A stretch of DNA of 64,000 bases, taken from contig JAYEFY010000048.1 in NCBI GenBank assembly GCA_034658815.1, positions 62,020-126,019 of the forward strand. Direction: 5' to 3'. A program made the translations under genes and the position numbers. This document shows positions 5,342 through 46,215 of this stretch, one piece after another. The stretch comes from Patescibacteria group bacterium (lineage in GTDB: Bacteria; Patescibacteriota; Minisyncoccia; Moranbacterales; DUUL01). Numbering within the stretch: the first letter of the stretch is position 1; each line of letters begins with the position of its first letter. The notes beneath the pieces were generated by a model. It was not told the origin of the DNA, searched no databases, and saw nothing but the letters and a program-made list of their open reading frames with translations.

Positions 5342-5353
5342 CAGCAAAAGTTT

Positions 5354-5471
5354 AGAGCCTGTCTGAGAACCCCATATCCTGCTGCAATTTCTCCTCCAGA
5401 GGCGGACAAGCATATTTTGGCTGTCCCGCTTAGGCGGGATCGCAACGAAGAGGGTTTTCAGACAGGCTCTT
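5354..5471 (+). repeat. structured intergenic element, family 1 copy A (putative ncRNA or miniature mobile element)
   Basis: 5' agagcctgtctgagaaccc pairs with 3' gggttttcagacaggctct (19 bp). Inner hairpin cccgc-ttag-gcggg. Homologous to 14363-14484 and 39957-40083 with compensatory changes in both stems. Confidence 0.6.
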
Positions 5472-5532
5472 AAAACAAAAAGCATTGTTGAAAAAAATAT
5501 CTTATGTTATCCTATAGTATAGTCCGTTAAGA

Positions 5533-10296: not shown

Positions 10297-11751
10297 ATGG
10301 AAGGGAAATTACGCTTAAGCGATGCGATAGTTTATCTTTGTTTTGGAATATTGGGCGGCGTTTTTTTAGCGTCGCTTTTTGGTATTGCCACGGCGCTTAT
10401 TTCAGGAACAGTATTATGTCTTGGCTGGCTTATTTTTATAAGAAAACATATTTTTGTCGTAAGTATTCTAATTCCGGGATTTGCATTGGGGCTTTTCGGA
10501 ATGAATTTGGAACTTCATTTTATTGGCGCGCAATACCCGGATCATTTTAAGGGATCGGCGGCGGTCATCGGCGATCCGGTAATGAAAAGTGATTATCAGC
10601 GTGTTATTCTTGAACCGATAGACAGTGAAAATTCACACAAGCGGCTAATTGCGTTCACTCCTCTATATCCGCGATTTCAATCACAAGACCGTCTTTATGT
10701 CGAGTGTATATTGAAAAAGCCTGAAAATAAAAACGACGGGTTTGACTATGTCCGTTATCTTGCCAAGGATGGAATATATAGAATTTGCGCCAAAGCTTCT
10801 TTAAAGCCATTAAATAATGGTCAGCGAGCGCATAGCGCGTTCTTATTTGATCTGAAACGAAAAATTGAGAACAGCATTGAAAGATCATTGCCGGAACCGG
10901 AATCGTCATATCTTGCCGGGCTATTGCTGGGTGGAAGCGATAGATTGCCGAAAGACATTGCCGAAGCATTTCGTCTGACCGGAACAACTCACACAGTCGC
11001 GGTGTCCGGACACAATATCACGATCATCGCGGGTGCGATATCAGTATTTCTGTTATTTTGCGGAATGTGGAGAAAGCAGGCATTTTGGTTTTCCGTAATA
11101 GGGATCGTTTCATTTGTATATTGCATCGGCGCTCCATCATCAGCAGTGCGCGCGGCGATCATGGCTATTTGCGTGCTTTGGGCGGCCAAGAACGGACGGC
11201 TTGCAAATTCAGGGAAAGCGCTGCTTTTCGCGGCCACCGCGATGGTTATGTGGTCTCCTCTTATTCTTATCTATGACGTAGGATTTCAATTGTCATTTCT
11301 CGCAACGCTGGGCATTGTATATATCTATGCCCCTTTAGCCGAGAAATTAGATATTTCAAGGGATTTTCTTGAACTTAGATCAATTATCCTCATCACTTTT
11401 TCCGCTCAAATTGCCGTGGCCGGGATTATCATCTACCAATTCGGTGCCTTTTCTCCGTATTCATTGGCAGTAAATTTTATTATTTTGCCGCTGATCCCCG
11501 TCATTATGCTGATTGGATTTATAATGATAGTGCTAAGTTTTGTTTCGATGGCTTTTGCTCAGCCGTTTGCCATCGGAGTGTGGGCGCTGCTTCATTTCGA
11601 AATTGAGACCATTGAATTTTTCTCCCATATTCCATATGTGAACATTGGCATTGAAAACGTGAGTGCCGCATGGCTGGCACTCTATTATATTTTTATTGCC
11701 GGAATTATTATATACTTACAAAAGCCAAGAATGTTATATCCCGAGAAATAA
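10297..11751 (+). CDS. comEC: competence protein ComEC/Rec2 (DUF4131 + competence channel domain)
   Basis: Polytopic membrane protein. LTGTTHTVAVSGHNITIIAG corresponds to the ComEC TGxxHLLAVSG motif. Confidence 0.85.
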   Translation: MEGKLRLSDAIVYLCFGILGGVFLASLFGIATALISGTVLCLGWLIFIRKHIFVVSILIPGFALGLFGMNLELHFIGAQYPDHFKGSAAVIGDPVMKSDYQRVILEPIDSENSHKRLIAFTPLYPRFQSQDRLYVECILKKPENKNDGFDYVRYLAKDGIYRICAKASLKPLNNGQRAHSAFLFDLKRKIENSIERSLPEPESSYLAGLLLGGSDRLPKDIAEAFRLTGTTHTVAVSGHNITIIAGAISVFLLFCGMWRKQAFWFSVIGIVSFVYCIGAPSSAVRAAIMAICVLWAAKNGRLANSGKALLFAATAMVMWSPLILIYDVGFQLSFLATLGIVYIYAPLAEKLDISRDFLELRSIILITFSAQIAVAGIIIYQFGAFSPYSLAVNFIILPLIPVIMLIGFIMIVLSFVSMAFAQPFAIGVWALLHFEIETIEFFSHIPYVNIGIENVSAAWLALYYIFIAGIIIYLQKPRMLYPEK

Positions 11752-11763
11752 AAATATACTAAA

Positions 11764-12630
11764 ATGCATCAGCGCTATAAGCAATTTCTAATATTTTTTA
11801 TTCTGATCCTTTTGCTTCTGCTTGTTGGTTTTGAAACTGTATCTCTTTCCTTCAAAAAACACAATCCACTTGAAGTACACTTTCTGGATATTGGGCAGGG
11901 CGATGCCACGCTTGTTCAATATCTTGGGTCATATCAGATCCTTATCGACGGAGGGCCGAATGGCAAAAAACTTTTGTCCGAATTGTCGAAAGTTATGCCG
12001 GCCACTGATCGCACGATCGAGATCGTAATTATGACGCATCCCGATAAAGATCATTTTGGCGGGTTGATCGATGCCATGAAAGCATATTCGGTAAAAATTG
12101 TTTTGTGCAATGGGCAGGAAGCGGATACGGAGATTTTCAGACAATATAAAAAAGTTATTGAAGAACAAGAGATAAAAGAATATACGTTGGGCGAAGGATC
12201 GAAAATATCTATTGGAAAAAAACTTGATCTGAGAAGTTTTAACCCCGATGTTATTGTGTCATCGAAAAGTGACAGAAATGAACACTCGATCGTGATAAGG
12301 ATGGACTATGGAGAAAATTCATTTCTTTTTACCGGTGACGCGGATTCCAGATCCGAAGCGGATATGTTAGAAGACCAAGAGGATGTTAATGTTGACTGGC
12401 TCAAAGTGGGGCATCACGGATCAAAACATTCAACAACAGAGAATTTTATCAAGAAAGTAACTCCGGAGTACGCGATCATTTCCTGCGGAAAGAATAATCG
12501 TTATGGCCATCCGCATGAGGATGTTCTTGGGCGACTGCGTTCACGCGATGTGGAAGTATTAAGGACTGACACGGTAGGGACGATCTTGGTGGAATGCTTC
12601 GATTCTCGAAGTAAATGTTCGGTGAGATGA
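11764..12630 (+). CDS. MBL-fold metallo-hydrolase, ComEC C-terminal domain encoded as a separate gene
   Basis: HFLDIGQGDATLV, MTHPDKDHFGG, VGHHGSKHS. N-terminal TM anchor. Confidence 0.8.
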   Translation: MHQRYKQFLIFFILILLLLLVGFETVSLSFKKHNPLEVHFLDIGQGDATLVQYLGSYQILIDGGPNGKKLLSELSKVMPATDRTIEIVIMTHPDKDHFGGLIDAMKAYSVKIVLCNGQEADTEIFRQYKKVIEEQEIKEYTLGEGSKISIGKKLDLRSFNPDVIVSSKSDRNEHSIVIRMDYGENSFLFTGDADSRSEADMLEDQEDVNVDWLKVGHHGSKHSTTENFIKKVTPEYAIISCGKNNRYGHPHEDVLGRLRSRDVEVLRTDTVGTILVECFDSRSKCSVR

Positions 12631-14362: not shown

Positions 14363-14484
14363 AAGAGTTTGCTTGAAAACTCCATATCCTGCTGCTGCAA
14401 TTTCTCCTCCAGAGGCGAACAAGTATATTTTAGCTGTCGCCTAGGCGAGATCGCAGCGGAAGAGGGTTTTCAAGCAAACTCTAA
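14363..14484 (+). repeat. structured intergenic element, family 1 copy B
   Basis: agagtttgcttgaaaactcc / gggttttcaagcaaactct outer stem. Inner hairpin tcgcc-ta-ggcga. ~80% identical to copy A with covariation. Confidence 0.6.
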
Positions 14485-21880: not shown

Positions 21881-24800
21881 ATGATTAGATATTCCACTTT
21901 CCATAAATTTACAGGAATCGTAGCTGCGATTTTTGTGCTCGCGGTTATTGGTGTCGCAAAACATACACAGGCGGCAGTTCCTATTATCTCATTCTCTGCT
22001 GATTTGACTGTGATTCCGGTTAATACTTCAACGAATCTTAATTGGGACGTATCAGATGCGGTTTCCTGCACGGCATCCGGATCATGGGGCGGCAATCAGC
22101 CATTGTCAGGTACATATGATACGGGGAATTTGCTAAGCGACGCAACATATGTTTTAACATGCGTGGGCGATTTTGGAGAAACAAATTCAAGCCAAGTAAC
22201 AATTACTGTCGCTGATCCGCCGGAACTGACATTTTTTGCCGACAACACGACTATTCCATATAATACTTCAACTGACTTAAACTGGTCGTCGACTAATGCT
22301 GATTCATGCATTGCTTCCGGAGCATGGTCTGGCGATGTCGGAGTATTCGGAACATATAACACCGGAAATCTTATTTCCTCAAAAACATATACGCTTCAGT
22401 GCGCTGGTCCCGGAGGGACAGCCATGAAATCAGTACAAATTACGATCGAATCGCCGACATTACCGCCGGAACTTGATTTTAGCGCTGACAATTATTTTAT
22501 TGAATATAACGAATCGGTAACTTTACAATGGAGTTCAACGAATACTGATGCTTGTGTTGCTTCAGGGTCATGGTCAGGGGCAAAACCTCTTTCCGGAACG
22601 CAGGGCTCGGGTAATCTTCAGAGTGATAAGAATTATGTATTAACGTGTACCGGGGAAGGAGGGAGTATCACGCGATTTGTGGCAATTGTTGTCGCGCCGC
22701 AAGTTACTGATCCTCCCGAACTTACGTTTACGGCTGACGATCAAGATATAGACTATGGTACGTCAACAACCTTAAATTGGACTTCAATTAATGCGCATAC
22801 CTGCACGGCGTCCGGATCATGGAGCGGCAACCGGCCGTTATCGGGTACATATGATACCGGAGCATTATACGCAACAAAGGCATATACTTTAACTTGCGTA
22901 GGTGATGGTGGAAGCGTTTCGCAAAAGATCACAATTAATGTCGGCGAAAACCCATTTCCTTCGCCGACATTGAGTTTTACTGCCGATAATAATGCGATCC
23001 CATACGATTCTTCAACGAATTTAAATTGGAGTGTGGCAAACGCGACATCTTGCACGGCGTCAAAAGCATGGTCAGGGGCAAAATCGCTTACAGGCAGTGA
23101 AAATACGGGGAATTTAACAAGCGATAAAATATATCGATTAACCTGTACGGGACCGGGCGGCTCAGCAACAAAAGACGTGGCAGTCATAGTCGGTGATCCC
23201 ACTGTTCCGCCGAGTGTTTCCTTTTGGGCTGATGATTATAGCGTGAATTATAATTCCGGGACAGTTGTTAGATGGACGTCTGATGACGCGAATTGGTGCC
23301 AACTTTCATATGGCGCTTCAACGGAAAATGTTGCGCTTGATGGCAGTTACGCGACGGGAAATCTATTTGACAACACAATCTATTCTCTATCATGCGGGAA
23401 CGCGTCCGGAACAACCACAAGAACGCTAACGATTACAGTGAATATGGTTGGACCCGCGCCGACGATTAATTTGTGGGCTGACGAGAATCCGATTGATTAC
23501 GGTTCTTCGACTACTGTTCGCTGGACAACTGCGAATGCCGATGAATGCCAGATGTCCGGTGTCGGCGATGTCTCTGTAAACGGATCAATCGGAACAGGAA
23601 CATTGTATAGTCCGAAAACGTACACATTGTACTGTGTCGGACCCGGAGGGGAAGATGAGGACAGTTTAACGATCAATATTCGTGAAGATACAATTCCTTC
23701 TGATCCGCCTGATCTGTTGTTTTGGGCTGACAGCTATTTGCTTCTGGAAGGAGAAAATACTGACTTGCATTGGATTGCGTCAAATGCTGATTGGTGCCAG
23801 GCTTCATTGGGATGGTCGGGAAGCAAACCAACCAGCGGTGATCAGAATACCGGATCGTTGTATACCACTACCAGTTACAAATTGAAATGTGGAAACATTC
23901 GGGGAAGCGTATCAAAAACGCTTACGATTGAAATTGGAAACTTGCCTGACGTACAGTTGGATTTTTGGGCCGATGAATACAGTGTTCCGAATAATGGCAA
24001 CACAACTTTGCGTTGGAATTCAGCAAACGCGAACTATTGCCGGACTCTTGGAGGTGAATGGGGTTGGAATAACCCCAAGCCGCTTAATGGAACGGAAAAT
24101 ACCGGACCACTTTCGAATTACGCGAATTTATATGTTTTGCAATGCGTAAACTGGCTTTCATCGGAAACGAAGTCCGTAACAATATTTGCGGGTGATCCTC
24201 CTCCAAGCGTGTCATTCTACGCGGCCAGTTATACTATTGGTTATAATACGCCGGCAACACTCTTTTGGAATGCGTTTAATTCCACATATTGTGAAGCCTG
24301 GTCGAATAATCCGGAGGAACTAACCTGGAACGAAAATAACATGGTAGTTTCCGGATCGCAGCAGACAACAAATCTTAGGAGTAATACCAGGTTCTATATT
24401 CGCTGTTATGGTCCCGGCGGGACCATAACGAAAAGATTAACAGTAAGGGTAGCGTCTCCGAACGCTCAAGTTCCGACAATAAGCTTTTGGGCGGATGACT
24501 ATATTGTACCCGAAAACGGATCTACCGTTGTGCATTGGACAAGCCAGAACGCGGATGGATGCAAGGCCATTTCAACTCCTGATGTCGTTGGGTGGAGCGG
24601 AAATAAAACGACAAGCGGAAACAATAACGTAGGGCCATTTATTCAAAATTCGGAACTGCAGCTTATTTGCTGGAACGGGTCAGCGTCCAGTTCAGCGATA
24701 CTTAATATTCAGGTCGGGGAAGGTACGATTGCGAGACCAAGCTTAAGTTTCTGGGCGGATGCTTATTCTTTGGCAGCCGGAGATTCCACGTGGCTTCGCT

Positions 24801-25675
24801 GGAGTGTACTTAACGCTAATGGCGGCACTTGCGTAGCTTCAGGAGACTGGAGCGGCAATAAAAGTACGGGAACAGGCAGTGAAAACACCGGTCCGATAGC
24901 GGTGCCTAAACATTATATTCTCACATGCAGTAATGAAGCAGGAGAAGTCTCGAGCTTTGTTGATATAAACGTAGGAGGACCGGCTGCTCCGCCTACACTG
25001 ACATTTCTTGCTGATGACTATGATATCGAAGACGGACAGGAAGTAATGCTGACATGGACAAGTACCAATGCGGCAAATTGTTTTGCAACCAATGATCCAT
25101 CCGGGCAATGGAGCGGAAGTGTGATGTTAAACGGCAATAAAAATGTTACGCCGCATTTTACGACAACATACGCATTAACGTGTATAGGGGACGGAGGCAG
25201 TATTACGGTAAATGTGCGGGTTTCAGTAGCCAAAGTTATTGTTTGCCCTTCAGATGTACAACTCAAAAAAGGCAGAATCAGGCAGCTTGAGGCGTGGTAC
25301 AAAGAAGATGCTGATATTAATTTCTCATGCGAGAATCTTGCCGGGGCAATGAATGTAACAAGTAAAACCGTTCCGTTTCCAACCAGCTGGTCTACTTCTG
25401 ACAGCAGTCTTGTTTCTCTGCAGGGAACGCCGGGTTTGATCAAAGCAGAGGATTATACTATGGGAACGGTAAATGTGTGTGCGGAATATAAAGAAATTAA
25501 GGGGTGCGCCGGAGTGCAAGTTGTCTTAACATGCTGGCAATGCGAAACTGACGGATCATGCTCTCCCGTTCCCGTTCCGCATGACACATGTCCGGAACCG
25601 TATTTTTCAGATAAAGCGTCATGCCTGCGTGTTTGCGGGTTAAAGTGGGGAAGTTGGAGAGAAGTTACTCCGTAA
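21881..25675 (+). CDS. giant cell-surface protein with ~13 tandem ~90-aa Ig-like repeats, a Big_2-like domain and a Cys-rich C-terminus
   Basis: N-terminal signal/TM. Repeat consensus P.L.F.AD......STNLNW.S.NA..C.ASG.WSG...L.GT..TGNL.....Y.L.C.G.GG. C-terminal ...CWQCETDGSCSP...C...CGL. Confidence 0.75.
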   Translation: MIRYSTFHKFTGIVAAIFVLAVIGVAKHTQAAVPIISFSADLTVIPVNTSTNLNWDVSDAVSCTASGSWGGNQPLSGTYDTGNLLSDATYVLTCVGDFGETNSSQVTITVADPPELTFFADNTTIPYNTSTDLNWSSTNADSCIASGAWSGDVGVFGTYNTGNLISSKTYTLQCAGPGGTAMKSVQITIESPTLPPELDFSADNYFIEYNESVTLQWSSTNTDACVASGSWSGAKPLSGTQGSGNLQSDKNYVLTCTGEGGSITRFVAIVVAPQVTDPPELTFTADDQDIDYGTSTTLNWTSINAHTCTASGSWSGNRPLSGTYDTGALYATKAYTLTCVGDGGSVSQKITINVGENPFPSPTLSFTADNNAIPYDSSTNLNWSVANATSCTASKAWSGAKSLTGSENTGNLTSDKIYRLTCTGPGGSATKDVAVIVGDPTVPPSVSFWADDYSVNYNSGTVVRWTSDDANWCQLSYGASTENVALDGSYATGNLFDNTIYSLSCGNASGTTTRTLTITVNMVGPAPTINLWADENPIDYGSSTTVRWTTANADECQMSGVGDVSVNGSIGTGTLYSPKTYTLYCVGPGGEDEDSLTINIREDTIPSDPPDLLFWADSYLLLEGENTDLHWIASNADWCQASLGWSGSKPTSGDQNTGSLYTTTSYKLKCGNIRGSVSKTLTIEIGNLPDVQLDFWADEYSVPNNGNTTLRWNSANANYCRTLGGEWGWNNPKPLNGTENTGPLSNYANLYVLQCVNWLSSETKSVTIFAGDPPPSVSFYAASYTIGYNTPATLFWNAFNSTYCEAWSNNPEELTWNENNMVVSGSQQTTNLRSNTRFYIRCYGPGGTITKRLTVRVASPNAQVPTISFWADDYIVPENGSTVVHWTSQNADGCKAISTPDVVGWSGNKTTSGNNNVGPFIQNSELQLICWNGSASSSAILNIQVGEGTIARPSLSFWADAYSLAAGDSTWLRWSVLNANGGTCVASGDWSGNKSTGTGSENTGPIAVPKHYILTCSNEAGEVSSFVDINVGGPAAPPTLTFLADDYDIEDGQEVMLTWTSTNAANCFATNDPSGQWSGSVMLNGNKNVTPHFTTTYALTCIGDGGSITVNVRVSVAKVIVCPSDVQLKKGRIRQLEAWYKEDADINFSCENLAGAMNVTSKTVPFPTSWSTSDSSLVSLQGTPGLIKAEDYTMGTVNVCAEYKEIKGCAGVQVVLTCWQCETDGSCSPVPVPHDTCPEPYFSDKASCLRVCGLKWGSWREVTP
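21974..25217 (+). repeat. in-frame tandem coding repeats, ~270-bp period, ~13 units (diverged)
   Basis: Periodic recurrence of ...NW.S.NA..C.ASG.WSG... blocks in the translation. Units are ~40-60% identical. Confidence 0.6.
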
Positions 25676-28247: not shown

Positions 28248-28550
28248 GTGTCCAAGATGTACTCATCTAGTACAGTTCTAGAAAAATATGTAAAAAACAA
28301 GAAATCAAATGACTATATTTTTGAAAGCACGCGAGGAAGCAAATTAACCGAAAGATCTGTTCAAAAAATATTTAGACAGGCGCTAAAAAAGTCTAAAATA
28401 AAGAGACAAGCAAGTTGTCATAGTCTAAGGCATAGTTTTGCTACGCATTTACTTGAAAACGGAGTTGATATAATATATATACAAGAACTATTGGGACATA
28501 AAAGATTGGAAACAACACGAATTTACCAAGCACTTTTAAATAAAAGATAA
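28248..28550 (+). pseudogene. tyrosine recombinase/integrase, C-terminal catalytic fragment only
   Basis: [36 protein letters not shown] (R...H..R...Y catalytic region). No room upstream for the N-terminal ~200 aa. Very AT-rich. Confidence 0.6.
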
Positions 28551-35450: not shown

Positions 35451-35783
35451 TTATTCCTCTAAGGATTTTAAATACTCCTTAGCATTTGCAGCTTCTCTAA
35501 TTGCATGGAGCAATATACTCGAGTTAAGCAATTTGGGCGCATCTTCTACTATTGTAGTAAGGCTAGCCACTATGTCAGTTGTCATTTCATTTGTTATTGT
35601 TTCTATATCTCTATGAGACAATAACTCTATATGTCCCCTTAGCCATGATACATTATCATGCAATAGATTTGTACCTTTAAGTAAGCTGGCCATTAAAGTA
35701 GCAGTCGAATTAGCTATTGCTTCAGCTGATTCACTTGCTCTTCTCAGATTTTTATTTTTTAATGATTTGCTTCTATCTTCCAC
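35451..35783 (-). CDS. hypothetical protein
   Basis: ORF only, within the AT-rich IS-associated region. Confidence 0.3.
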   Translation of the reverse strand: MEDRSKSLKNKNLRRASESAEAIANSTATLMASLLKGTNLLHDNVSWLRGHIELLSHRDIETITNEMTTDIVASLTTIVEDAPKLLNSSILLHAIREAANAKEYLKSLEE

Positions 35784-36069: not shown

Positions 36070-36957
36070 CTAAGTAAAGCGCGTGCAATAAATAAACGAC
36101 AAAAAGATGCCAACCAGTTTTCTAACATGAGTCCAGTTCTTTTGCTCGATATGAGCATTGTCATTTTTCTTGTAAGGTCTGCCTCTGGTAAATTCAATAT
36201 CCTTTTCAATGCAATGTCTGTATAGCTGCCAATTGATAAATTCGCCTCCATTATCAGGATCAATTCCTTTTAAAGAAAAGGGTAGTCTTTCTTCGATATT
36301 ATCTAATCCTTTTTTAATCCTGATTTGAGCTTTTCCCATGACAGCTATGCTTTCTGTCCATTGAGTGCTGATATCAGTAAAAGTAAGGCTATTTATGAAT
36401 TCTCCAGAAGCAGAGTGTCCGCAATGAGCTACCGTATCCAATTTGCCAAATCCAGCTCTTTTCTCATCCCAAGAGGAAGTTTTAATGGGGATTTGTTTTT
36501 TTAACATACTTCCCGGTTTAGTAGTGGAAAATACTTTTTTCTTTTTGATTCTCTTGCTTCTTTTCAGTCTTCTATCAATAGTAGCTGATGATATCTTTAA
36601 TAATTTCTCTTTAACAGAATCAGTAAAAGAAACTTCTTCAAACTTTTCTAAAACTTCAATATATTCAGGAAGCATCGGAGCTAAATTCTGTCCGCAAGGA
36701 TAATCAAATATTTCCCAAATCTTTTTTAACTTCACAATAACATAACCGTCATATTTCTCCCTTCTTTTTCTGTTGATCGGATTGGCATAATCCAAATCTA
36801 TCTTAACGGAAAGTATTTGAATTAAATAGTTTCTGTTTAAAGTTGTGTTAACGCAAAGCTCATCTAAGATACTCCCTTTGCCTGTTCTGTTTGATTTTAA
36901 ATATCTCACCTTAACCTTTTTAACTAATTCTTTTTTAGATTTTTGACTCATTTCCAT
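36070..36957 (-). CDS. DDE transposase (rve integrase-core, IS481/IS3-like), possibly C-terminally truncated
   Basis: N-terminal HTH-like region. LDTVAHCG (D1), GIDPDNGGEFIN (D2), NAHIEQKN (E) in DDE spacing. Very AT-rich. Confidence 0.7.
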   Translation of the reverse strand: MEMSQKSKKELVKKVKVRYLKSNRTGKGSILDELCVNTTLNRNYLIQILSVKIDLDYANPINRKRREKYDGYVIVKLKKIWEIFDYPCGQNLAPMLPEYIEVLEKFEEVSFTDSVKEKLLKISSATIDRRLKRSKRIKKKKVFSTTKPGSMLKKQIPIKTSSWDEKRAGFGKLDTVAHCGHSASGEFINSLTFTDISTQWTESIAVMGKAQIRIKKGLDNIEERLPFSLKGIDPDNGGEFINWQLYRHCIEKDIEFTRGRPYKKNDNAHIEQKNWTHVRKLVGIFLSFIYCTRFT

Positions 36958-37270
36958 AGAGATAGTTATTAATTATTACTATCTCCAAGGTTAGATTTTA
37001 AATGATTTATCGTATAGGCTTTGGGTTAGGTTTTGGATGATTTAATTCGCGGCTTTGACAGTTTCTCTAAAAAAATGTACAGTACATGGCAGGGATTTGA
37101 ATAGATATAAATATAGAGTAGAAATGCTTAACAAATAGATAAAAACATTGCAGCCGCTTGCAACTGAAAACATTAGCAAAGTGATTTATTCAATGGAAAC
37201 CAATTTTTTTTTGCACACACATTTGTTTTTGAATGTTCTTTTGTGCTTAAAATAAACACTGTTTAAATTT

Positions 37271-39513: not shown

Positions 39514-39954
39514 ATGAAAACAATAATAAAAACAATTAAAATCACTACCGAGAAACAGTTAGAGTTTATTGATGTTACCAGTAAAGTTGAAGAGGTGTTA
39601 GACCTTTCAGGGATGAAAGAAGGGTTTATCGTCGTTTATTCTCCGCACACAACATCATCAATCATAATCAATCAAAATGAGCCGATGTTATTGCAGGATA
39701 TGACGAGAATATTATATAAGCTTGTTCCAATCGATGAACGATACGGACATGATATGTTTGAGCTTACTAAACATGTAAAATCTGATGGGCGCAGTAATGG
39801 CCATAGTCACTGTAAAAGTATTATTCTCGGGTGCAGCGAAACAGTTCCATTTCAAAAAGGAGAAATGATTCTTGGAAGTCGCCAAAGTATTTTTTTTGTT
39901 GAGTTGGATGGCAGTAGAAAGCGCGATTTTTTGGTACAAATCGTGGGGGAATAA
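39514..39954 (+). CDS. YjbQ/UPF0047 family protein
   Basis: Full-length match to the YjbQ pattern (FIDVT..V......G...G...V...HTT.S....NE...L..D.......VP...Y.H). Confidence 0.75.
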   Translation: MKTIIKTIKITTEKQLEFIDVTSKVEEVLDLSGMKEGFIVVYSPHTTSSIIINQNEPMLLQDMTRILYKLVPIDERYGHDMFELTKHVKSDGRSNGHSHCKSIILGCSETVPFQKGEMILGSRQSIFFVELDGSRKRDFLVQIVGE

Positions 39955-39956
39955 TA

Positions 39957-40083
39957 AGAGCCTGTTTGAAAATCCCACATCCTGCTGTAATTTCTTCTCC
40001 AGAAGCCAGAGGCAGACAAGCATATTTTGGCTGCCATGCTTCGGCAGGATCGCAACGGAGAAGGGTTTTCAAACAGACTCTTA
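39957..40083 (+). repeat. structured intergenic element, family 1 copy C
   Basis: aagagcctgtttgaaaatccc / gggttttcaaacagactctt outer stem. Inner hairpin ctgcc-atgcttc-ggcag. 12-nt insertion relative to A and B. Starts 3 nt after the yjbQ stop. Confidence 0.6.
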
Positions 40084-40168
40084 GTTTGTAAGTTCGTTAA
40101 AATGTTATTGGAAACAATACCTTATCGCATTCGGAAGAATGCGTTTTTTGATGCAAAGACCGCGGTGC

Positions 40169-40197
40169 TTGACAAACGATTTACTGTATTGTATAAC
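40169..40197 (+). promoter_or_regulatory. sigma70-like promoter TTGACA-17-TATAAC upstream of OmpA-family gene
   Basis: Consensus -35, 17-nt spacer, near-consensus -10, ~80 nt upstream of the ATG. Confidence 0.5.
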
Positions 40198-40277
40198 AAT
40201 GCAGAAGGTAGAAAGTACATTAAATTAGGAATCAATTTAATAACCTAAGGCTCAAAAAAATTACGGGAGGATTTGAC

Positions 40278-40955
40278 ATGATGAATCGGAAGAAAAAAAT
40301 GAAGTATTTGGTTGTTATGGTGGTTATGTTGTTCATGGTCGCGAGTTGCGCGACTACAAGCCATGACCAGTGGTCGAAACAGAAAAAAGGCGCGGTTTGG
40401 GGAACAGCGGGAGGCGCTGCTGCCGGTGCTATTCTTGGCCAAGTAATTGGCGGAGACACGAAAAGCACAGTATTGAGTGCTGTTGCCGGTGCTGCCGTTG
40501 GCGGTCTTGCCGGACACCAAATTGGCGGGTATATGGACCAGCAAGAGCAAGCGTTAAACAACGCGTTTGCCGCGTCAGAAGCGGCTAGTGTCAGGCGGAG
40601 TCGGGACGTATTGATCGCGTGTTTCGAAAGTGATTATATGTTTGATTACGATTCCGCTAAACTTAAGCCTGGAGCTTATACAGAGATCTCACGAGTTACG
40701 CGAGTTCTAAAACAGTATGGCCAAACGCGGCTGATTATTGCCGGACATACCGATAGGGAAGGATCTGAGGCATACAACATGGATCTTTCCGAACGTCGCG
40801 CCGAAAGTGTCGCAGCTGCTCTTGTAAATGAAGGAATACCGGAGCGGAGAATGACGGTGATCGGTTATGGCGAATCCCAACCTATCTCCTCGTCCGATGC
40901 CGTAAACCGGCGGGTTGAGATAATCATCATTCCGATCGAACAGCAACGTGGTTGA
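40278..40955 (+). CDS. OmpA-family lipoprotein (glycine-zipper + OmpA C-terminal peptidoglycan-binding domain)
   Basis: Lipobox VASC, Gly/Ala-zipper segment, OmpA_C motifs (FDYDSAKLKP, IAGHTDREGSEAYNMDLSERRAESV, VIGYGES). Visibly higher GC than neighbours. Confidence 0.8.
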   Translation: MMNRKKKMKYLVVMVVMLFMVASCATTSHDQWSKQKKGAVWGTAGGAAAGAILGQVIGGDTKSTVLSAVAGAAVGGLAGHQIGGYMDQQEQALNNAFAASEAASVRRSRDVLIACFESDYMFDYDSAKLKPGAYTEISRVTRVLKQYGQTRLIIAGHTDREGSEAYNMDLSERRAESVAAALVNEGIPERRMTVIGYGESQPISSSDAVNRRVEIIIIPIEQQRG

Positions 40956-40976
40956 TATTCATTTAGTTTAAAAAGA

Positions 40977-41013
40977 AGTGCCTGGCAGAGAATTCTCTGT
41001 TAGGCACTTTTAT
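40977..41013 (+). terminator. rho-independent terminator after OmpA-family gene
   Basis: agtgcctggcagag-aatt-ctctgttaggcact: ~14-bp stem including two G-U pairs, followed by TTTTAT. Confidence 0.7.
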
Positions 41014-41234
41014 CTTACCAGTCATGGAGATTGAGAAAATTACCGGCTAATTAGTACTTTCCAAGATTATTTCCCAAGGTTCAACCTCAAGTATTCTGGG
41101 TTGAACCTTAAAACCGGAATTTTTTACGCTGGAGCAGGCTTGCAGCCCGGTCCAGCGCGAGAAACTAAAGGACCGGGCTGCTAATACACATTTTAACCGG
41201 AATTAGCTTTTTAGAGCTCATTCTAGCAAAAAGT

Positions 41235-42287
41235 GCCATATGTGTTTAGACATTACCAAAATGTTTTATGCACACTCTTTTGTCGGTCTTTGTATTTTAA
41301 TTAAATTATAATTTTCTAAAAATTGATTAGGGCTTTTTCCATTTAAGCTACAATGCCTTAAATCATTGTAATACATATTCCATAATCTAACACGATATTT
41401 CAATTCATCAATACTAGCAAACTTTTCTCGAGAGTATAATCTTCTCTGATCGCTTCCATGGCTTCTTTCAACAGTGCCATTCTGAGCTGGCTTTCCTGGA
41501 TCAATTAAGTAGTGAATAATTTTATTCTTGGCGCAAAACTTATCCAAGTAGTGAAGCTTGGGGTTAAAGGGGTCGGCGCTTTTCAAATAACCGGTATATC
41601 TATTGGTAAATGTGGAATGATTATCTGTCTTTACGGCTCTAATTTCAAAAGGAGCCTTTCTAATTATTTTTTCTAGAAACTTAACAGAGTGGCAATTAGA
41701 TTGTTCGTCATATATTTCCATGTGTCTCCACCTGCTGGACAAGTCTATAGCTGTATACTGATAATATTGCTTATTGGCGACTTTTCCCGGAACATACTTA
41801 ACATCTATTTCAATTATTTCTCCGGGTTTCAATTCACTTCTAATATATTTATACTTCACTCTCTTAATTCTATATTTCCTGACTAAGCCTTCTGTTTTTA
41901 ATATTTTACCGACAGTTCTTTCGTGAATATTGATATTTTCATCTTTTAAATCCCATTTTATCTTTAAAGCGCATTCTTTCTTTTCTTTCCTTAATTCAAT
42001 AACCCTTTCTTTTACTCTAATGGAAGTTTCTTTGGGATTAGTTTTGGGCCTAGTTGATTTAGGAATCAATTCCTCCTCCCCATATTTCTTATACAAGGAA
42101 ATCCATCTTTCTAAACTTCTTTGGCTGTAAGGACATACTTTAGCGGCGTCTTTTAATTTTACTTCTTTGTTATAGATGGGAAGCACCCACCTTAACCTTT
42201 CTTCTTTAATTGTTTTTGGCATATTTATACACATACATGAGAATAATACTATTCTCAGAAAACCGCCATAGGTGTGTGCACATTACC
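41235..42287. mobile_element. IS481-like element bounded by imperfect 24-bp direct repeats
   Basis: gccatatgtgtttagacattacca at 41235-41258 and gccataggtgtgtgcacattacca at 42264-42287 (20/24 identical, same orientation) bracket the transposase gene. No clear terminal inverted repeats found. Confidence 0.45.
41266..42234 (-). CDS. IS481-family transposase (HTH + rve DDE integrase core)
   Basis: N-terminal HTH. KTDNHSTFT (D2), DPGKPAQNGTVERSHGS (E region). 322 aa single ORF, typical of IS481. Confidence 0.8.
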   Translation of the reverse strand: MCINMPKTIKEERLRWVLPIYNKEVKLKDAAKVCPYSQRSLERWISLYKKYGEEELIPKSTRPKTNPKETSIRVKERVIELRKEKKECALKIKWDLKDENINIHERTVGKILKTEGLVRKYRIKRVKYKYIRSELKPGEIIEIDVKYVPGKVANKQYYQYTAIDLSSRWRHMEIYDEQSNCHSVKFLEKIIRKAPFEIRAVKTDNHSTFTNRYTGYLKSADPFNPKLHYLDKFCAKNKIIHYLIDPGKPAQNGTVERSHGSDQRRLYSREKFASIDELKYRVRLWNMYYNDLRHCSLNGKSPNQFLENYNLIKIQRPTKECA

Positions 42288-42408
42288 AGTTTCGCTTGAC
42301 AAAAGATTAAAAGTGGTGTAGAATGTGGCTGAAAGTAGAAGAACAAGTTTTTTAAAAACCTAGATCCGAAATGAAGAACGGATTAAAAGAATATACGGAG
42401 GCATAACT

Positions 42409-42591
42409 ATGAAAAGGAAATCAATTTTTTTAGTTGCTATTGTGCTGATATTGGCTTTTCTCTCATTGAGCGTATTGAGTGGCTGTGCCACTCGAACATA
42501 CGAAAAAACATTCTCTAGAGAAACAAACAAGTTTCTCAAAGATGTACTCAGGCAAGGAGGAAAGGAAATAAGAAAAGAAATTTATGATTGA
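42409..42591 (+). CDS. small lipoprotein
   Basis: Signal peptide plus lipobox LSGC. C-terminal motif YEKTFSRETNKFLKDVLRQGGKEIRKEIYD is shared with the next gene. Confidence 0.5.
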   Translation: MKRKSIFLVAIVLILAFLSLSVLSGCATRTYEKTFSRETNKFLKDVLRQGGKEIRKEIYD

Positions 42592-42656
42592 CGATTCCTG
42601 TTTTAAAAATCAAGATGGAAGCAGGGAATAAAGAATAAAAGGAAAAGGAGAATGTC

Positions 42657-43121
42657 ATGAAGAAAAGCTTAGTAGTAACTATACTGGCAATCGGTTTTGC
42701 TCTTGCAATTTCCTTTCCGGCGGATGCCAGGAGACAAAAAGGCATCTCGGCAGAGGATGTAAGGGCACTGCAAAACATAGGGATTGACCTGCGGCACGCG
42801 TCCGCGGCAGAAATTAACCGAAAAGCCGCGGCGATTGAGCGGCTCGTGAAAACTCTAAAAGACCTCTCAAATGCGAGAATTTTGGAGGCAAAAGCCCGCC
42901 AAGAGGAAGCTAAAGCCGCCAAAGCTGAAATAAAACTTCAACAGCAGTTGCAAAAAGCCGGCTATACCCAACAGAAGAGGGCGGCTAAACAGCAGAGAAT
43001 AGACGCGAAAAATGATCCGTTCAATCCATATGAGCGAACATTTTCGAAAGAAATAAACAGAACCTTCCGAGACTTCCTCAGTCATGGACGCCGGGAGGTA
43101 ATAAGAGACATTTTTAAGTAA
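42657..43121 (+). CDS. secreted hypothetical protein with coiled-coil and conserved C-terminal motif
   Basis: Signal peptide. C-terminus NPYERTFSKEINRTFRDFLSHGRREVIRDIFK is paralogous to the 42409 product. Confidence 0.5.
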   Translation: MKKSLVVTILAIGFALAISFPADARRQKGISAEDVRALQNIGIDLRHASAAEINRKAAAIERLVKTLKDLSNARILEAKARQEEAKAAKAEIKLQQQLQKAGYTQQKRAAKQQRIDAKNDPFNPYERTFSKEINRTFRDFLSHGRREVIRDIFK

Positions 43122-43173
43122 CTTTTACTGTTGCTGTGTGTCCCCGTCTTGAAAATTAGGATGGGGACTCAAC

Positions 43174-43641
43174 TTGTATAAAATGGAAGACGGTAAAAAG
43201 GGAGAAATCATGGAAAAATGGAAGATCTGGGTTTTGATACCGGCAGTAATGTTAGTATTAAGTTTATTCTCTGCCTGTGCCGCGCCTCAGGCAAAATATC
43301 GCACAAAGGAATTCTTACCGTTTGCAAATGTGAAACCACTGGAAGTAAATCCAAATGTTGTCGAAAACATGAGCCGCGCGCAATATGAGGAATACATGCG
43401 CCGATTGAAAGAGTATAATGTTTGGGTGCGCGATACTGCTTATGCCAACGCTTATACGGCCTACGGTGAGAAGCAGTGGGTGAACAATGAAGAAGGGGGA
43501 CCTCCCATTCCCCCGCAAAATAATTATGGCATCCAAAGTTTCAGCCCATCGGTCAGTGTGTTCGGCAAAAGAAGCGAAGAGTATCGCAGGGCATCAGACG
43601 AACTGTGGCAACAGGTAAAAAAGGAGCTAGAATCGGAATAA
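43174..43641 (+). CDS. lipoprotein, hypothetical
   Basis: Signal peptide plus lipobox LFSAC. Confidence 0.5.
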   Translation: MYKMEDGKKGEIMEKWKIWVLIPAVMLVLSLFSACAAPQAKYRTKEFLPFANVKPLEVNPNVVENMSRAQYEEYMRRLKEYNVWVRDTAYANAYTAYGEKQWVNNEEGGPPIPPQNNYGIQSFSPSVSVFGKRSEEYRRASDELWQQVKKELESE

Positions 43642-43842
43642 GAAAAAACAACAAAGCAACAAAAAAACGGGCAATCCCATCGAGGAGAACCCGTTTTTTA
43701 TTTTGCCAAGAATGTGGTATTATGGGATTGCTACCATTATATATACGTGCGATTAATTTAAAGAAATAAGCGCTTGCGGACGCGAAATGTGTGTTTGAGG
43801 CAATTTTTGAGTGCGCGCTTCGAAAAATTTATTTAAAACAAA

Positions 43843-46215
43843 ATGACAATTGTCAATAAGCACAATAAGCGCTATCGTCGGATAGTAACAAAAATAAACA
43901 AGCTGGAAAAAGAAATGGCCGAACTGCGCGGTGATGATTTTTCGGCGAAAACGGCGCTTTTAAAAATGCGGCTCAAGTCGGGAGAATCTCTGGACGAATT
44001 ACTGCCAAGCGCGTACGCGCTGGCTCGCGAGGCCGCCAAGAGAGTGATAGGATTGAGAGCATTTAATGTTCAATTGCAGGGAGCTATAGCGGCTCATGAA
44101 GAAAAAATCGTTGAAATGAAAACAGGAGAAGGGAAAACACTGGCGATTCTTTTTCCGGCATATTTAAACGCTCTTGAAGGAAAAGGAGTTCATGTGGTGA
44201 CGGCCAACGATTATCTTGCCGAGCGTGATGCCAAGTGGATGGGAAAAGTTTACTCGTTTTTAGGTTTAAGCGTCGGGTCGATCACCAATAAAACGGAAGA
44301 ATTTGAACGCCAAGTGTCTTACTTGGCTGATGTAACGTACGTTTCAAATAATGAGGTCGGCTTCGATTTTTTAAAAGACAATATGCTCTATGACCGAAAA
44401 AATAAGTGCCAAAGAGATCTGCATTTTGCCATTATTGACGAAGCTGATAGTGTGCTTATTGACGAGGCGCAAACTCCACTGGTAATCTCTGACAGCACCT
44501 CGTCTGATGAAGACAGTAAAAAGCAATTCGTGGAGCTTAATTCGATAATCAGAGAACTGCGCAAAAGTATTGATTTTGAGATAAACGAAAAAGAGCGCGC
44601 CATTTCATTGAAGGTGGCCGGCGTAAAAAAATTGGAGACATTGCTTGGCGTTAATAATCTTTACGATTCTGAAATTGATTATCTCTACTACATTGAATGT
44701 TTGCTTAGAGCGCATCTGCTTTTTAAAAAGGATAGAGATTATGTTGTTGATGAAAAAAATGTTGTTATTGTCGATGAATTTACCGGACGGCTTATGCCCA
44801 ATCATAGATATTGCCAAGGAATCCATCAGGCGATTGAAGCCAAAGAAGGGCTGACGGTGCAAAACGAAGACAAGACGCTGGCCGCAATCACATTTCAGCA
44901 CTTTTTTAAACATTATAATAAAATGTCCGGACTAACCGGAACTGTGGCAACAGCCAGAAAAGAATTTCGTCTGATCTATAAGAAAGAGGTCGTACAAATC
45001 CCAACTGATAAGCGCATTATTCGTGATGACGTGCCTGACCGCTTTTTTCTTAATTGGAACGATAAACTTGATTATCTCGCGTGGTTTGTTCAAGAGCACT
45101 ACTTTAAGAAACGAGCGGTGCTTATTGGAACCCGGTCGATCAGAAAATCTCAGAAAACATATCAGGTGCTTATGGGGGAAAATATTCCAAGCGCCGTACT
45201 TAACGCGAAACACACTTCTCGGGAAGCGGAAGTTATCGCGCAGGCAGGGCAGCCTCAAACGGTAACAGTCGCTACAAATATGGCCGGAAGAGGCACCGAT
45301 ATTGGACTTGCGAAATCCGTACGTGATCAAATAGGGCTTGTGGTTATCGGAACAGAAAGACACAATACGCGGAGAATTGATGATCAGCTTATTGGAAGAG
45401 CCGGACGGCAGGGAGATCCCGGTTATGCCCAGTTTTTTGTATCAGCGGAAGATGAATTGATCAAGACCCATTTTAAGGAAGAATACATCGCAGAACTTAA
45501 ACGAAATAAGGAGTGGCCGGAAGGAGTAAGCAGCGCGCGATTGCAGGCGATTGTAAATAAAACGCAAAAACGGATGGAAGGCCTGTTCTTTGATCAACGT
45601 GTTTTAAATTATGAGTTCGACCGCATACTTGAAGCGCAACGAAACTCATTTTACCGCCAGAGGAACAGAGTGCTGTGTGACGACAATTTAAAAGAAGAAA
45701 CACTCGGTCTTTTGAAAAAATATGCGTACAGCCATATTATTTTGCCTCAACAAACACGAAGCAATGAGTTTTCGCAACAGCAGGCAGCCGCAATTTCCAC
45801 GGCTCTTAAAAAAGCCGTCATAAATAAATGGTTTCAACCCAATTTTGAAGCTCACTCCTATACAATTGCTGAAATGAGAAAAGAGGCCTATGAAAGTATA
45901 ATAAAATATTATAACAATGTTGAGCATTATGTGTCGGAAAAAAAGATGAGAAAGATTGAGAAGGCAGTTACCTTGAAGGTTCTGGATCTATTATGGGTGG
46001 AACATTTGCGCAATGTTGAAAGTATGCAACAGGCGGCACTGATCAGTTCGATCGGCAAAGCGAATTTTTTTGAAGAATATGAAATTGAAATGGCTAGGGT
46101 TTATAAGTCAATGCTTTATTCCGTGCCACGGATCATTTGCTTAACACTGCTTAGAGCCATGAATACTTTTCTTGTTTCCAACGAGAATAATAACAATGAA
46201 TATTCACGGCAATGA
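43843..46215 (+). CDS. secA: preprotein translocase ATPase SecA
   Basis: MKTGEGKTL Walker A, DEAD-like motor, TNMAGRGTDI, helical scaffold domain. Confidence 0.9.
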   Translation: MTIVNKHNKRYRRIVTKINKLEKEMAELRGDDFSAKTALLKMRLKSGESLDELLPSAYALAREAAKRVIGLRAFNVQLQGAIAAHEEKIVEMKTGEGKTLAILFPAYLNALEGKGVHVVTANDYLAERDAKWMGKVYSFLGLSVGSITNKTEEFERQVSYLADVTYVSNNEVGFDFLKDNMLYDRKNKCQRDLHFAIIDEADSVLIDEAQTPLVISDSTSSDEDSKKQFVELNSIIRELRKSIDFEINEKERAISLKVAGVKKLETLLGVNNLYDSEIDYLYYIECLLRAHLLFKKDRDYVVDEKNVVIVDEFTGRLMPNHRYCQGIHQAIEAKEGLTVQNEDKTLAAITFQHFFKHYNKMSGLTGTVATARKEFRLIYKKEVVQIPTDKRIIRDDVPDRFFLNWNDKLDYLAWFVQEHYFKKRAVLIGTRSIRKSQKTYQVLMGENIPSAVLNAKHTSREAEVIAQAGQPQTVTVATNMAGRGTDIGLAKSVRDQIGLVVIGTERHNTRRIDDQLIGRAGRQGDPGYAQFFVSAEDELIKTHFKEEYIAELKRNKEWPEGVSSARLQAIVNKTQKRMEGLFFDQRVLNYEFDRILEAQRNSFYRQRNRVLCDDNLKEETLGLLKKYAYSHIILPQQTRSNEFSQQQAAAISTALKKAVINKWFQPNFEAHSYTIAEMRKEAYESIIKYYNNVEHYVSEKKMRKIEKAVTLKVLDLLWVEHLRNVESMQQAALISSIGKANFFEEYEIEMARVYKSMLYSVPRIICLTLLRAMNTFLVSNENNNNEYSRQ

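Follow-up and report, generated by a model that had tools for sequence, protein, structure and literature searches.

The question raised by positions 40169–43641 of a 64,000-nt stretch of contig JAYEFY010000048.1 (hereafter the window), from a Patescibacteria group bacterium, is whether a set of envelope genes with a transposase in its midst arrived there as one piece of foreign DNA. Five genes lie between yjbQ (39514–39954) and secA (43843–46215): a gene for an OmpA-type lipoprotein (OmpA below), the transposase gene of an insertion sequence (IS) on the opposite strand, and three genes for small exported proteins, here called S1, S2 and S3. The protein sequences of OmpA, S1, S2, YjbQ and SecA are exactly those of NCBI records MEA1926480–86, in which a Patescibacteria metagenome-assembled genome is given as the source; the contig is 130,751 bp long. 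A preliminary description, made from the letters alone, had taken the whole as a horizontally acquired islet. The stretch is probably a mosaic of three layers of different age: a resident envelope cluster, an IS481-like element that is found across the Candidate Phyla Radiation (CPR), and a solo left-end relic of the same kind of element. The envelope cluster is made of known kinds of protein and of orphans, and the part that is surprising to a specialist is the target choice of the IS family.

The order of the layers follows from a second genome. Contig L001 (assembly GCA_030626045.1) is collinear with the window from 28.3 to 49.4 kb at 85–91% DNA identity. Its yjbQ–secA interval encodes OmpA (224 aa), S1 (62 aa), S2 (153 aa) and S3 (141 aa) and holds no transposase, and it keeps the promoters, terminators and intercistronic hairpins of the window. 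Since the four envelope genes stand in L001 without the IS, the cluster is resident and predates the IS insertion. A genomic island is expected to be missing from the same site in close relatives, and here L001 holds all four envelope genes. In L008, a more distant relative whose SecA is 64% identical and whose downstream genes are collinear, an S3 homologue lies directly 5′ of secA. Among short metagenome contigs, L003 carries the order OmpA-S2-S3 and L004 the order OmpA-lipoprotein-S2. The data sets behind L003, L004 and L008 are JGI 3300056970, SRR17165146 and SRR32546281.

Given L001 and L008, the view that the entire 3.5-kb stretch is a single acquired genomic islet, carried by or with the IS, appears largely refuted, and we regard it as very unlikely. 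It can draw on the position of the IS inside the block, on the foreign affinity of OmpA, on a GC content at third codon positions (GC3) that is raised in OmpA, S2 and S3 of both genomes, and on the low conservation of the four envelope proteins, which are 73–83% identical between the window and L001 whereas their neighbours are 85–95% identical. Against these points stand the synteny of the block in the IS-free L001, the place of S3 next to a secA whose product is just 64% identical, donor-type OmpA genes that lack adjoining S genes, and an IS that is low in GC and endemic to the CPR. There is also no tRNA, integrase or boundary repeat, and the stretch has 40.7% GC overall; Rfam and tRNA scans of the whole window gave no match, and thus there is no tRNA-linked island boundary. 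Acquisition is supported for OmpA alone, which has Desulfobacterota matches and the top GC and GC3 values; it is not supported for S1–S3 (synteny in L001 and, for S3, in L008) or for the IS, a low-GC element of the CPR. Best hits of all genes within one CPR lineage, together with a similar composition of the rest of the genome, had been named beforehand as what would speak against acquisition. The transposase has such relatives, S1–S3 match only a few related or unclassified contigs, and OmpA points elsewhere, to Desulfobacterota.

The foreign affinity of OmpA and the metagenomic origin of both genomes also allow an assembly or binning artefact to be imagined, in which a Desulfobacterota fragment was fused to a CPR contig. 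Two independent NCBI assemblies share this gene order, however, and Logan contig L002 has part of it; their sequences are 10–20% apart, with promoters and terminators that conform to the local type. The probability of such an artefact is practically negligible. As a separate observation, the collinearity with L001 begins at window positions 28248–28550, a 100-aa ORF (GC3 0.22) that is the C-terminal third of a XerC/D-like tyrosine recombinase; the full 262-aa gene is present in L001, and the remnant may be a rearrangement breakpoint.

Base composition does not set the block apart as a whole. The stretch had been described as about 50% GC, a value that applies only to the OmpA gene, which at 50.4% ranks first among 60 open reading frames (ORFs) of the window (2.7 sd above the mean). 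The stretch itself has 40.7% against 39.1% for the window, and the atypical composition expected of a genomic island breaks off at the IS and S1, which are below the window mean (transposase ORF 32.9%, S1 34.4%); S2 has 46.7% and S3 44.7%. The three highest GC3 values of the 60 ORFs belong to OmpA (0.478), S3 (0.474) and S2 (0.465), with a mean of 0.366 and an sd of 0.057, and the same three genes have the three highest GC3 values in L001. The GC content of OmpA is likewise high at first (GC1, 0.58) and second (GC2, 0.46) codon positions. Another GC-rich patch of the window is a 1264-aa ORF at 21881–25675, with 46% GC and a second-codon-position GC of 0.52.

The second layer is the IS. Its transposase (322 aa, minus strand, 41266–42234) is encoded by a single ORF without frameshift and contains HTH_28/HTH_32, rve and rve_3 domains. 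It had been called IS481-type from the letters, and IS481 (NF033577) is indeed the best NCBIfam family, with 204.7 bits, a score under the cut-off of 224; the next family, IS3, reaches 74.8 bits. Relatives of the transposase occur at 80 loci of species-representative genomes, with 50–78% identity over the best segment. About 52 of these loci are in metagenome-assembled genomes (MAGs) with CPR names (Saccharibacteria, Paceibacterota, Kerfeld-, Falkow-, Giovannoni-, Buchanan- and Sungbacteria, and others), and seven carry non-CPR labels, all on contigs of 1.6–5.4 kb. By the distribution of these sequences, the IS, which is missing from L001, is native CPR mobile DNA that arrived separately. Multiple contigs were seen to terminate in the IS: L011, L070–L078 (MAG C24_maxbin.066); L080, L082–L085 (E14_metabat.bin.214); and L063–L065. 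That many contigs per CPR MAG end in the IS implies several near-identical copies that break assemblies, and a family that is active now or was so recently.

The ends of the element were placed by starting from the best inverted repeat in the window (18/24) and shifting both ends 5 nt outward on the basis of about 100 related loci. The complete IS then measures 1026 bp (41262–42287, minus strand), with its right inverted repeat (IRR) at 41262–41290 and its left, transposase-proximal inverted repeat (IRL) at 42259–42287. The family IRL is GGTAATGTGCACACACATATGGCGGTTTT, from which the window IRL departs by one mismatch, and the IRR is the reverse complement of TGTTTTAGGCACACACATTTGGCGGTTTT. These 29-nt repeats are conserved over about 100 loci, the length of the element is about 1.0 kb, and 20 of 70 loci have a perfect 4-bp target site duplication (TSD) at the predicted register, compared with 0–1 at shifted registers.

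The surroundings of the left end are distinctive. In the window the tip of the IRL is followed on the plus strand by 8 nt (AGTTTCGC, 42288–42295) and then by TTGACA, the -35 box of the sigma70-type promoter of the S1-S2-S3 operon (TTGACA-17-TAGAAT, 42296–42324, plus strand), and both hexamers and the spacer of this promoter are identical in the IS-free L001. The same arrangement is met throughout the family. At the genome loci, 26 of 40 distinct left flanks have at least five of the six letters of TTGACA exactly 8 nt off the IRL tip (0–2 at other offsets), and at independent metagenome loci the count is 41 of 58 (0–1 at other offsets). When the flanks are pooled, with the window locus excluded and other offsets scored in the separate sets only, at least five of six letters are matched at nt 9–14 from the IRL tip in 66 of 97, 43 of them perfectly, and a TG-n-TAtaaT signal follows 17 nt downstream. 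As the IRL and the hexamer have the TSD between them, TTGACA is target DNA outside the IS. A fixed distance and a fixed orientation, as expected of a site-directed IS, are thus found in independent insertions. We propose, with a confidence that is evenly balanced, that this CPR-wide IS481-like family homes to sigma70-type promoters, IRL first and exactly 8 bp upstream of TTGACA, which would make it the first DDE IS with promoter-directed target choice as far as could be found.

At the locus studied here, the transposase-proximal end of the IS lies 8 bp upstream of the S-operon -35 box, the position that its family prefers, and both transcription units of the envelope cluster are left physically intact. 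For the targeting, the transposase may recognise the hexamer directly, or it may contact promoter-bound RNA polymerase or sigma. The N-terminus of the transposase gave no Pfam match to sigma70 region 4 even at E = 10, no relative of solved structure was found by sequence, and comparison of the -35 target region with the IS ends by eye revealed no convincing similarity that would make the target a mimic of them. At most genome loci, ORFs begin 60–150 nt out from the IRL, and many of them encode signal peptides. Signal peptides or lipoboxes were noted on genes after targeted promoters among L009–L060 (e.g. L012, L013, L014, L019, L023, L026, L038, L039 and L042). The family may have a bias toward promoters of monocistronic surface-protein genes.

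Alternatively, the pattern could reflect survival in place of targeting, if insertion were random and a compact CPR genome tolerated only the copies just upstream of a promoter. The intergenic regions of CPR genomes are short, the -10 signal is enriched together with the -35 box as in real promoters rather than bare TTGAC words, and the perfect TSD in just 20 of 70 loci would mean that old copies, already sifted by selection, are numerous. Yet selection cannot yield a single-nucleotide register such as that of the 66 of 97 flanks with the hexamer at exactly 8 nt. The orientation is always IRL first, with a perfect TTGACA in 43 of the 97, and many other neutral positions exist, for instance downstream of terminators. 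Single-nucleotide register and fixed orientation speak against post-insertion selection alone, and we consider this explanation improbable next to promoter-directed insertion.

In its general build the element resembles the IS481 family, with a single long ORF without frameshift, an N-terminal HTH and an rve DDE core, a length of about 1 kb and a short TSD. IS481 family TSDs are reported to range from 2 to 15 bp (PMC10045372). The window IS family differs in its score, which is under the family cut-off (204.7 vs 224), in an IRL that begins with GGTAATGT and not with TGT, in a TSD of 4 bp where most IS481 members have 6 bp, and in its orientation-specific insertion beside a -35 box, for which no IS481 report was found in the literature searched. 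More broadly, no report of promoter-directed insertion by IS481-like or other DDE ISs, or of CPR studies of them, was found in that literature, which is absence of evidence only.

The closest behaviour described is that of the ISAba32/ISAjo2 subgroup of the IS1202 family, whose members always insert IRL first, 5 bp from XerCD sites, with a 5-bp duplication (10.1101/2022.12.17.520857; PMC10132070). In both cases the element is an rve-type IS related to IS481, and its transposase-proximal IRL faces a site bound by proteins, always the same few base pairs away, with a short TSD in between. The window IS family is unlike the subgroup in that its target is a sigma70-type -35 element and not xrs/dif/pdif, at 8 nt and with a 4-bp TSD, and in that its hosts are CPR bacteria. 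Tn7, which enters attTn7 downstream of glmS, is similar in having a defined insertion place and leaving neighbouring genes intact; it differs in that a protein dedicated to target selection directs it to one site in each genome, while the window IS family has one transposase and hundreds of potential promoter sites. A safe-haven rationale for targeting has been raised as a possibility by the authors of the IS1202 study (10.1101/2022.12.17.520857). If promoter targeting is true, a one-gene IS that locates the upstream edges of promoters at single-nucleotide precision would represent a new target-selection rule for DDE elements. Such a safe landing site would explain how the IS persists in compact genomes almost without spare DNA, and IS positions would annotate real promoters in uncultivated CPR genomes.

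The third layer emerges from the imperfect direct repeats that had been reported to flank the IS. The repeats are real (30 nt, 80% identity, 41229–41258 and 42259–42288; no chance matches expected), and they do not flank it symmetrically, since the right copy lies inside the IS and the left one 4 nt outside. The right copy is the IRL of the IS itself. The left copy is a degenerate second IRL situated 4 nt beyond the IRR: at 41229–41257 (minus strand) it has five mismatches to the family IRL consensus, and similarity to the left end continues for about 10 nt more. The own IRL together with this second left-end relic explains the "direct repeats". The gap of 4 nt (AAAA, 41258–41261, no strand) equals the TSD length of the family, as expected from a second insertion at the site of an older copy, and the simplest account of the solo left end is that an element had struck this promoter before and left it behind. 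Repeated insertion into a single site has been described for xrs-targeting ISs (10.1101/2022.12.17.520857). The two 4-mers on either side of the IS differ, however (AAAA vs AGTT), and the solo left end may instead have remained from a tandem dimer. Other copies of the IS or of its ends were not found in the window.

That the two repeats bracket the transposase gene at a spacing of 1030 bp might suggest TSDs or att-like boundaries of a mobile element. Such a reading is extremely unlikely, for the right copy is inside the IS with one mismatch to the IRL consensus, the TSDs of the family are 4 bp long, and the two copies of a TSD could not differ as much as these repeats do (80% identity) while the IS is intact. 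Furthermore, a second IRL on the far side of the IRR was absent from all of about 40 other genome loci. Next to the relic, window-specific filler DNA of unassigned origin (41017–41228, no strand) contains hairpins, e.g. at 41142–41181, and is missing from L001. Two identities were tried for it, a decayed IS body and a miniature inverted-repeat transposable element (MITE) with an IRR, and both were rejected, as similarity ends after the first ~40 nt of the left end.

Within the resident cluster, the OmpA gene (40278–40955, plus strand, 225 aa) is the one good candidate for transfer. The OmpA-family lipoprotein seen in the letters is borne out by Pfam (PF00691, E = 7e-24, profile positions 1–94 of 98, besides glycine zippers) and by the NCBIfam family YiaD_Gzip_OmpA (NF053611; 203.2 bits vs a cut-off of 175, positions 2–206 of 206). 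A lipobox VASC is read at residues 21–24, a glycine zipper at residues ~38–90 and an OmpA-like peptidoglycan-binding domain at 121–212, with the peptidoglycan-binding signature TD..G...N..LS.RRA and NRRVEI. The lipobox, the glycine zipper and the C-terminal OmpA-like domain are shared with the YiaD family (NF053611; E. coli YiaD) and with Pal. The protein would be lipid-anchored at Cys24 and bind peptidoglycan via its OmpA-like domain, as its family membership suggests. Patescibacteria are not known to have an outer membrane. In such a host the anchor would be in the cytoplasmic membrane, unlike that of YiaD and Pal, and OmpA would link this membrane to the wall.

The best match of the protein is its L001 orthologue (83% identity), and the next among the matches listed are 53–64% identical. 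Taxon names stand on only about a quarter of the matches, and those named, among the matches listed, are all Desulfobacterota (Desulfosalsimonas, Desulfonatronovibrio, Desulfobacterales, Desulfohalobiaceae and Thermodesulfobacteriota); among the best 120 matches, no Patescibacteria name occurs except that of the window's own protein. The window gene is clustered with orphan small exported proteins, which its Desulfobacterota homologues lack; no S-type neighbours were seen at the three Desulfobacterota-type homologues whose genomic context was inspected. Most likely, judging from these matches, the gene came from a donor resembling Desulfobacterota, in a transfer that predates the split of the window genome from L001, and the GC3 raised in both genomes fits an old transfer. 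The data would fit a family centred in Desulfobacterota that entered the lineage at least once, through one or several acquisitions.

A vertical history, with nothing foreign in the gene, is the less probable account and is considered unlikely. The composition and affinity would then come from a Gly/Ala-rich zipper, from the codon preference of a well-expressed envelope gene and from over-representation of Desulfobacterota in the databases. The high GC1 and GC2 of OmpA agree with this, the L008 S3 gene is GC-rich too relative to its own contig, and OmpA-type genes adjoin S2 or S3 in L003 and L004, so that the cluster may have had an OmpA gene for a long time. Nevertheless, the identity to Desulfobacterota proteins, at 55–65%, far exceeds what is expected between phyla for an envelope protein without housekeeping function, the window OmpA is nearer to those proteins than to the OmpA of L003 or L004, the best 120 matches show no Patescibacteria name beyond its own, and GC3, which is independent of protein composition, is also about 2 sd over the mean. 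Under the transfer that we favour, the supposed foreign island is mostly resident DNA with one good transfer candidate, a Desulfobacterota-type peptidoglycan-binding lipoprotein in a wall-bearing host without an outer membrane. This is a modest result that bears on how CPR bacteria build and borrow envelope parts.

The remaining members of the cluster are S1–S3. Three small lipoproteins had been announced; S1 and S3 are such, and S2 is not. S1 (42409–42591, plus strand, 60 aa) has the lipobox LSGC, and its mature 35-aa lipopeptide consists almost wholly of a C-terminal motif. S2 (42657–43121, plus strand, 154 aa) has no cysteine and a signal of the SPase-I type (ADA|RR), followed by a conserved N-domain and a C-terminal motif helix at residues 123–154. 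S3 (43210–43641, plus strand, 143 aa, ATG at 43210) has the lipobox FSAC (LSAC in L001), a conserved 80-aa core and a truncated motif tail. That the 60-aa and the 154-aa protein share the motif, as first noticed in the letters, was confirmed (41% identity over 29 aa, E = 4e-7), and the L001 orthologues keep it as Y-E-x-T-x-S-x-E-x-N...D-x-L...E...I. It is full-length on the S3 homologues P0134 and P0135. Its treatment as a new domain in a jackhmmer-style search had been advised, and no wider family came to light: a 32-column motif profile against 1.84 billion representatives hit only S1, S2 and a spurious repeat ORF, P0136. Neither Pfam nor NCBIfam gave a credible match to S1–S3. Among 5.8 billion proteins, with the query's own cluster counted, five were found for S2 and four for S3. 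S1–S3 thus appear, from these searches, to be orphans confined to the lineage, with homologues in L001, in a single CPR-like relative and on a few contigs that are short and unclassified.

An AlphaFold model of S2 (pLDDT 66, modest confidence) has a long helix at residues 50–118 and a tail helix at 125–153. Read from the sequence, the tail has its hydrophobic residues in a stripe with i/i+4 spacing and is positively charged overall; it is predicted to be an amphipathic helix. S1–S3 would be exported, helix-rich envelope proteins (S1 a lipopeptide, S2 a secreted protein with a long predicted helix, S3 a lipoprotein), whose common cationic C-terminal helix of ~30 aa would dock onto a common partner or a membrane surface. 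For an episymbiotic lineage they would then represent a new kind of envelope-protein module, marked by its tail helix. A loose analogy, with no claim of membership, can be drawn to Braun's lipoprotein Lpp, which is also very small and, once mature, amounts to little more than a single helix, as the mature 35 aa of S1 are the motif predicted to be helical in S2. The two proteins are not similar in sequence, S1 lacks a conserved C-terminal lysine, and its host lacks an outer membrane. In L004, a 183-aa lipoprotein (361–912, lipobox MTGC) that is weakly S2-like (25% over 142 aa) stands between OmpA and S2, and its place there shows that the small-protein set of the cluster differs among lineages.

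Several observations weigh against the mosaic of resident cluster, IS and relic, or against parts of it. An intact TSD is lacking around the window IS (AAAA vs AGTT). Neither the 8 nt that separate its IRL from the -35 box nor any other DNA upstream of TTGACA can be aligned with L001, which therefore offers no clean empty site for the IS481-like element. The high GC3 of S2 and S3 is without an identified donor. The OmpA fragment encoded on L003 shows 38% identity with the window OmpA and 46–54% with the Desulfobacterota-type set; neither L003 nor L004 is long enough for phylum assignment, and the direction of the OmpA transfer rests on best-hit taxonomy. The structure models are of low confidence (S3 pLDDT 56, S2 pLDDT 66), too poor for fold searches, and the functions suggested for S1–S3 are drawn from sequence features only.

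The transcription signals of the cluster are well defined. The promoter of the OmpA gene, sigma70-type TTGACA-17-TATAAC, was found where it had been described (40169–40197, plus strand; TATAAT in L001), and so was the strong intrinsic terminator after the gene (40974–41011, plus strand; -27 kcal/mol, z = -6.7; kept in L001). Such a consensus promoter had been thought unusual for the window, which is incorrect: ten window sites score at least 11/12, and among these is a second one inside the stretch, the S-operon promoter at 42296, which had been overlooked. The S operon ends in an intrinsic terminator 3′ of S3 (43662–43705, plus strand), which is also kept in L001. Own promoters (40169 and 42296) and terminators (after OmpA and after S3) make two transcription units. 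Upstream, a terminator-like hairpin 3′ of yjbQ (40126–40143, plus strand) is kept in L001.

Inside the S operon, one intercistronic hairpin separates S1 and S2 (42595–42627, plus strand; weak in the window, stronger in L001) and another, with a 13-bp stem, separates S2 and S3 (43140–43168, plus strand; intergenic fold z = -5; kept in L001). The two hairpins are related (GUCCCyGUCUUGA-AAA-UCAAGAUGGGGAC type, without a U-tract) and stand 5′ of both S2 and S3, in L001 at 11278–11305 and 11815–11843. This suggests either duplicated hairpin-plus-gene units or a common signal for mRNA processing or stability.

Two further mobile elements were noted. A second window-only IS (35133 to ~37040) has terminal inverted repeats of ~27–45 nt, a transposase gene at 36070–36957 (minus strand) and an extra ORF at 35451–35783 (minus strand). 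Its transposase is ~44% identical to ISNCY/ISLbi1-type transposases and unrelated to the IS481-like element. Its empty site is exact in L001, which reads ...AGCCGGCT|TTGACA... where the window reads ...AGCCGGCT[1.9 kb]CGGCT|TTGACA.... The TSD is 5 bp (CGGCT), and the transposase-proximal end lies 5 bp from the TTGACA (37046–37051) before rny. This is the same promoter-adjacent, IRL-first geometry as that of the IS481-like element.

The other is a dispersed element of ~125 nt with ~19-nt terminal inverted repeats (AGAGCCTGTTTGAAAACCC / GGGTTTTCAAACAGGCTCT), present in the window at 5346–5475, 14364–14482 and 39953–40109 and in L001 at 4190–4301; it has no Rfam match. The copy at 39953–40109 (no strand) lies directly 3′ of the yjbQ stop codon. 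By blastn of the window against L001 and alignment of the three window copies with the one in L001, this copy is missing at that place in L001, which indicates MITE-like behaviour.

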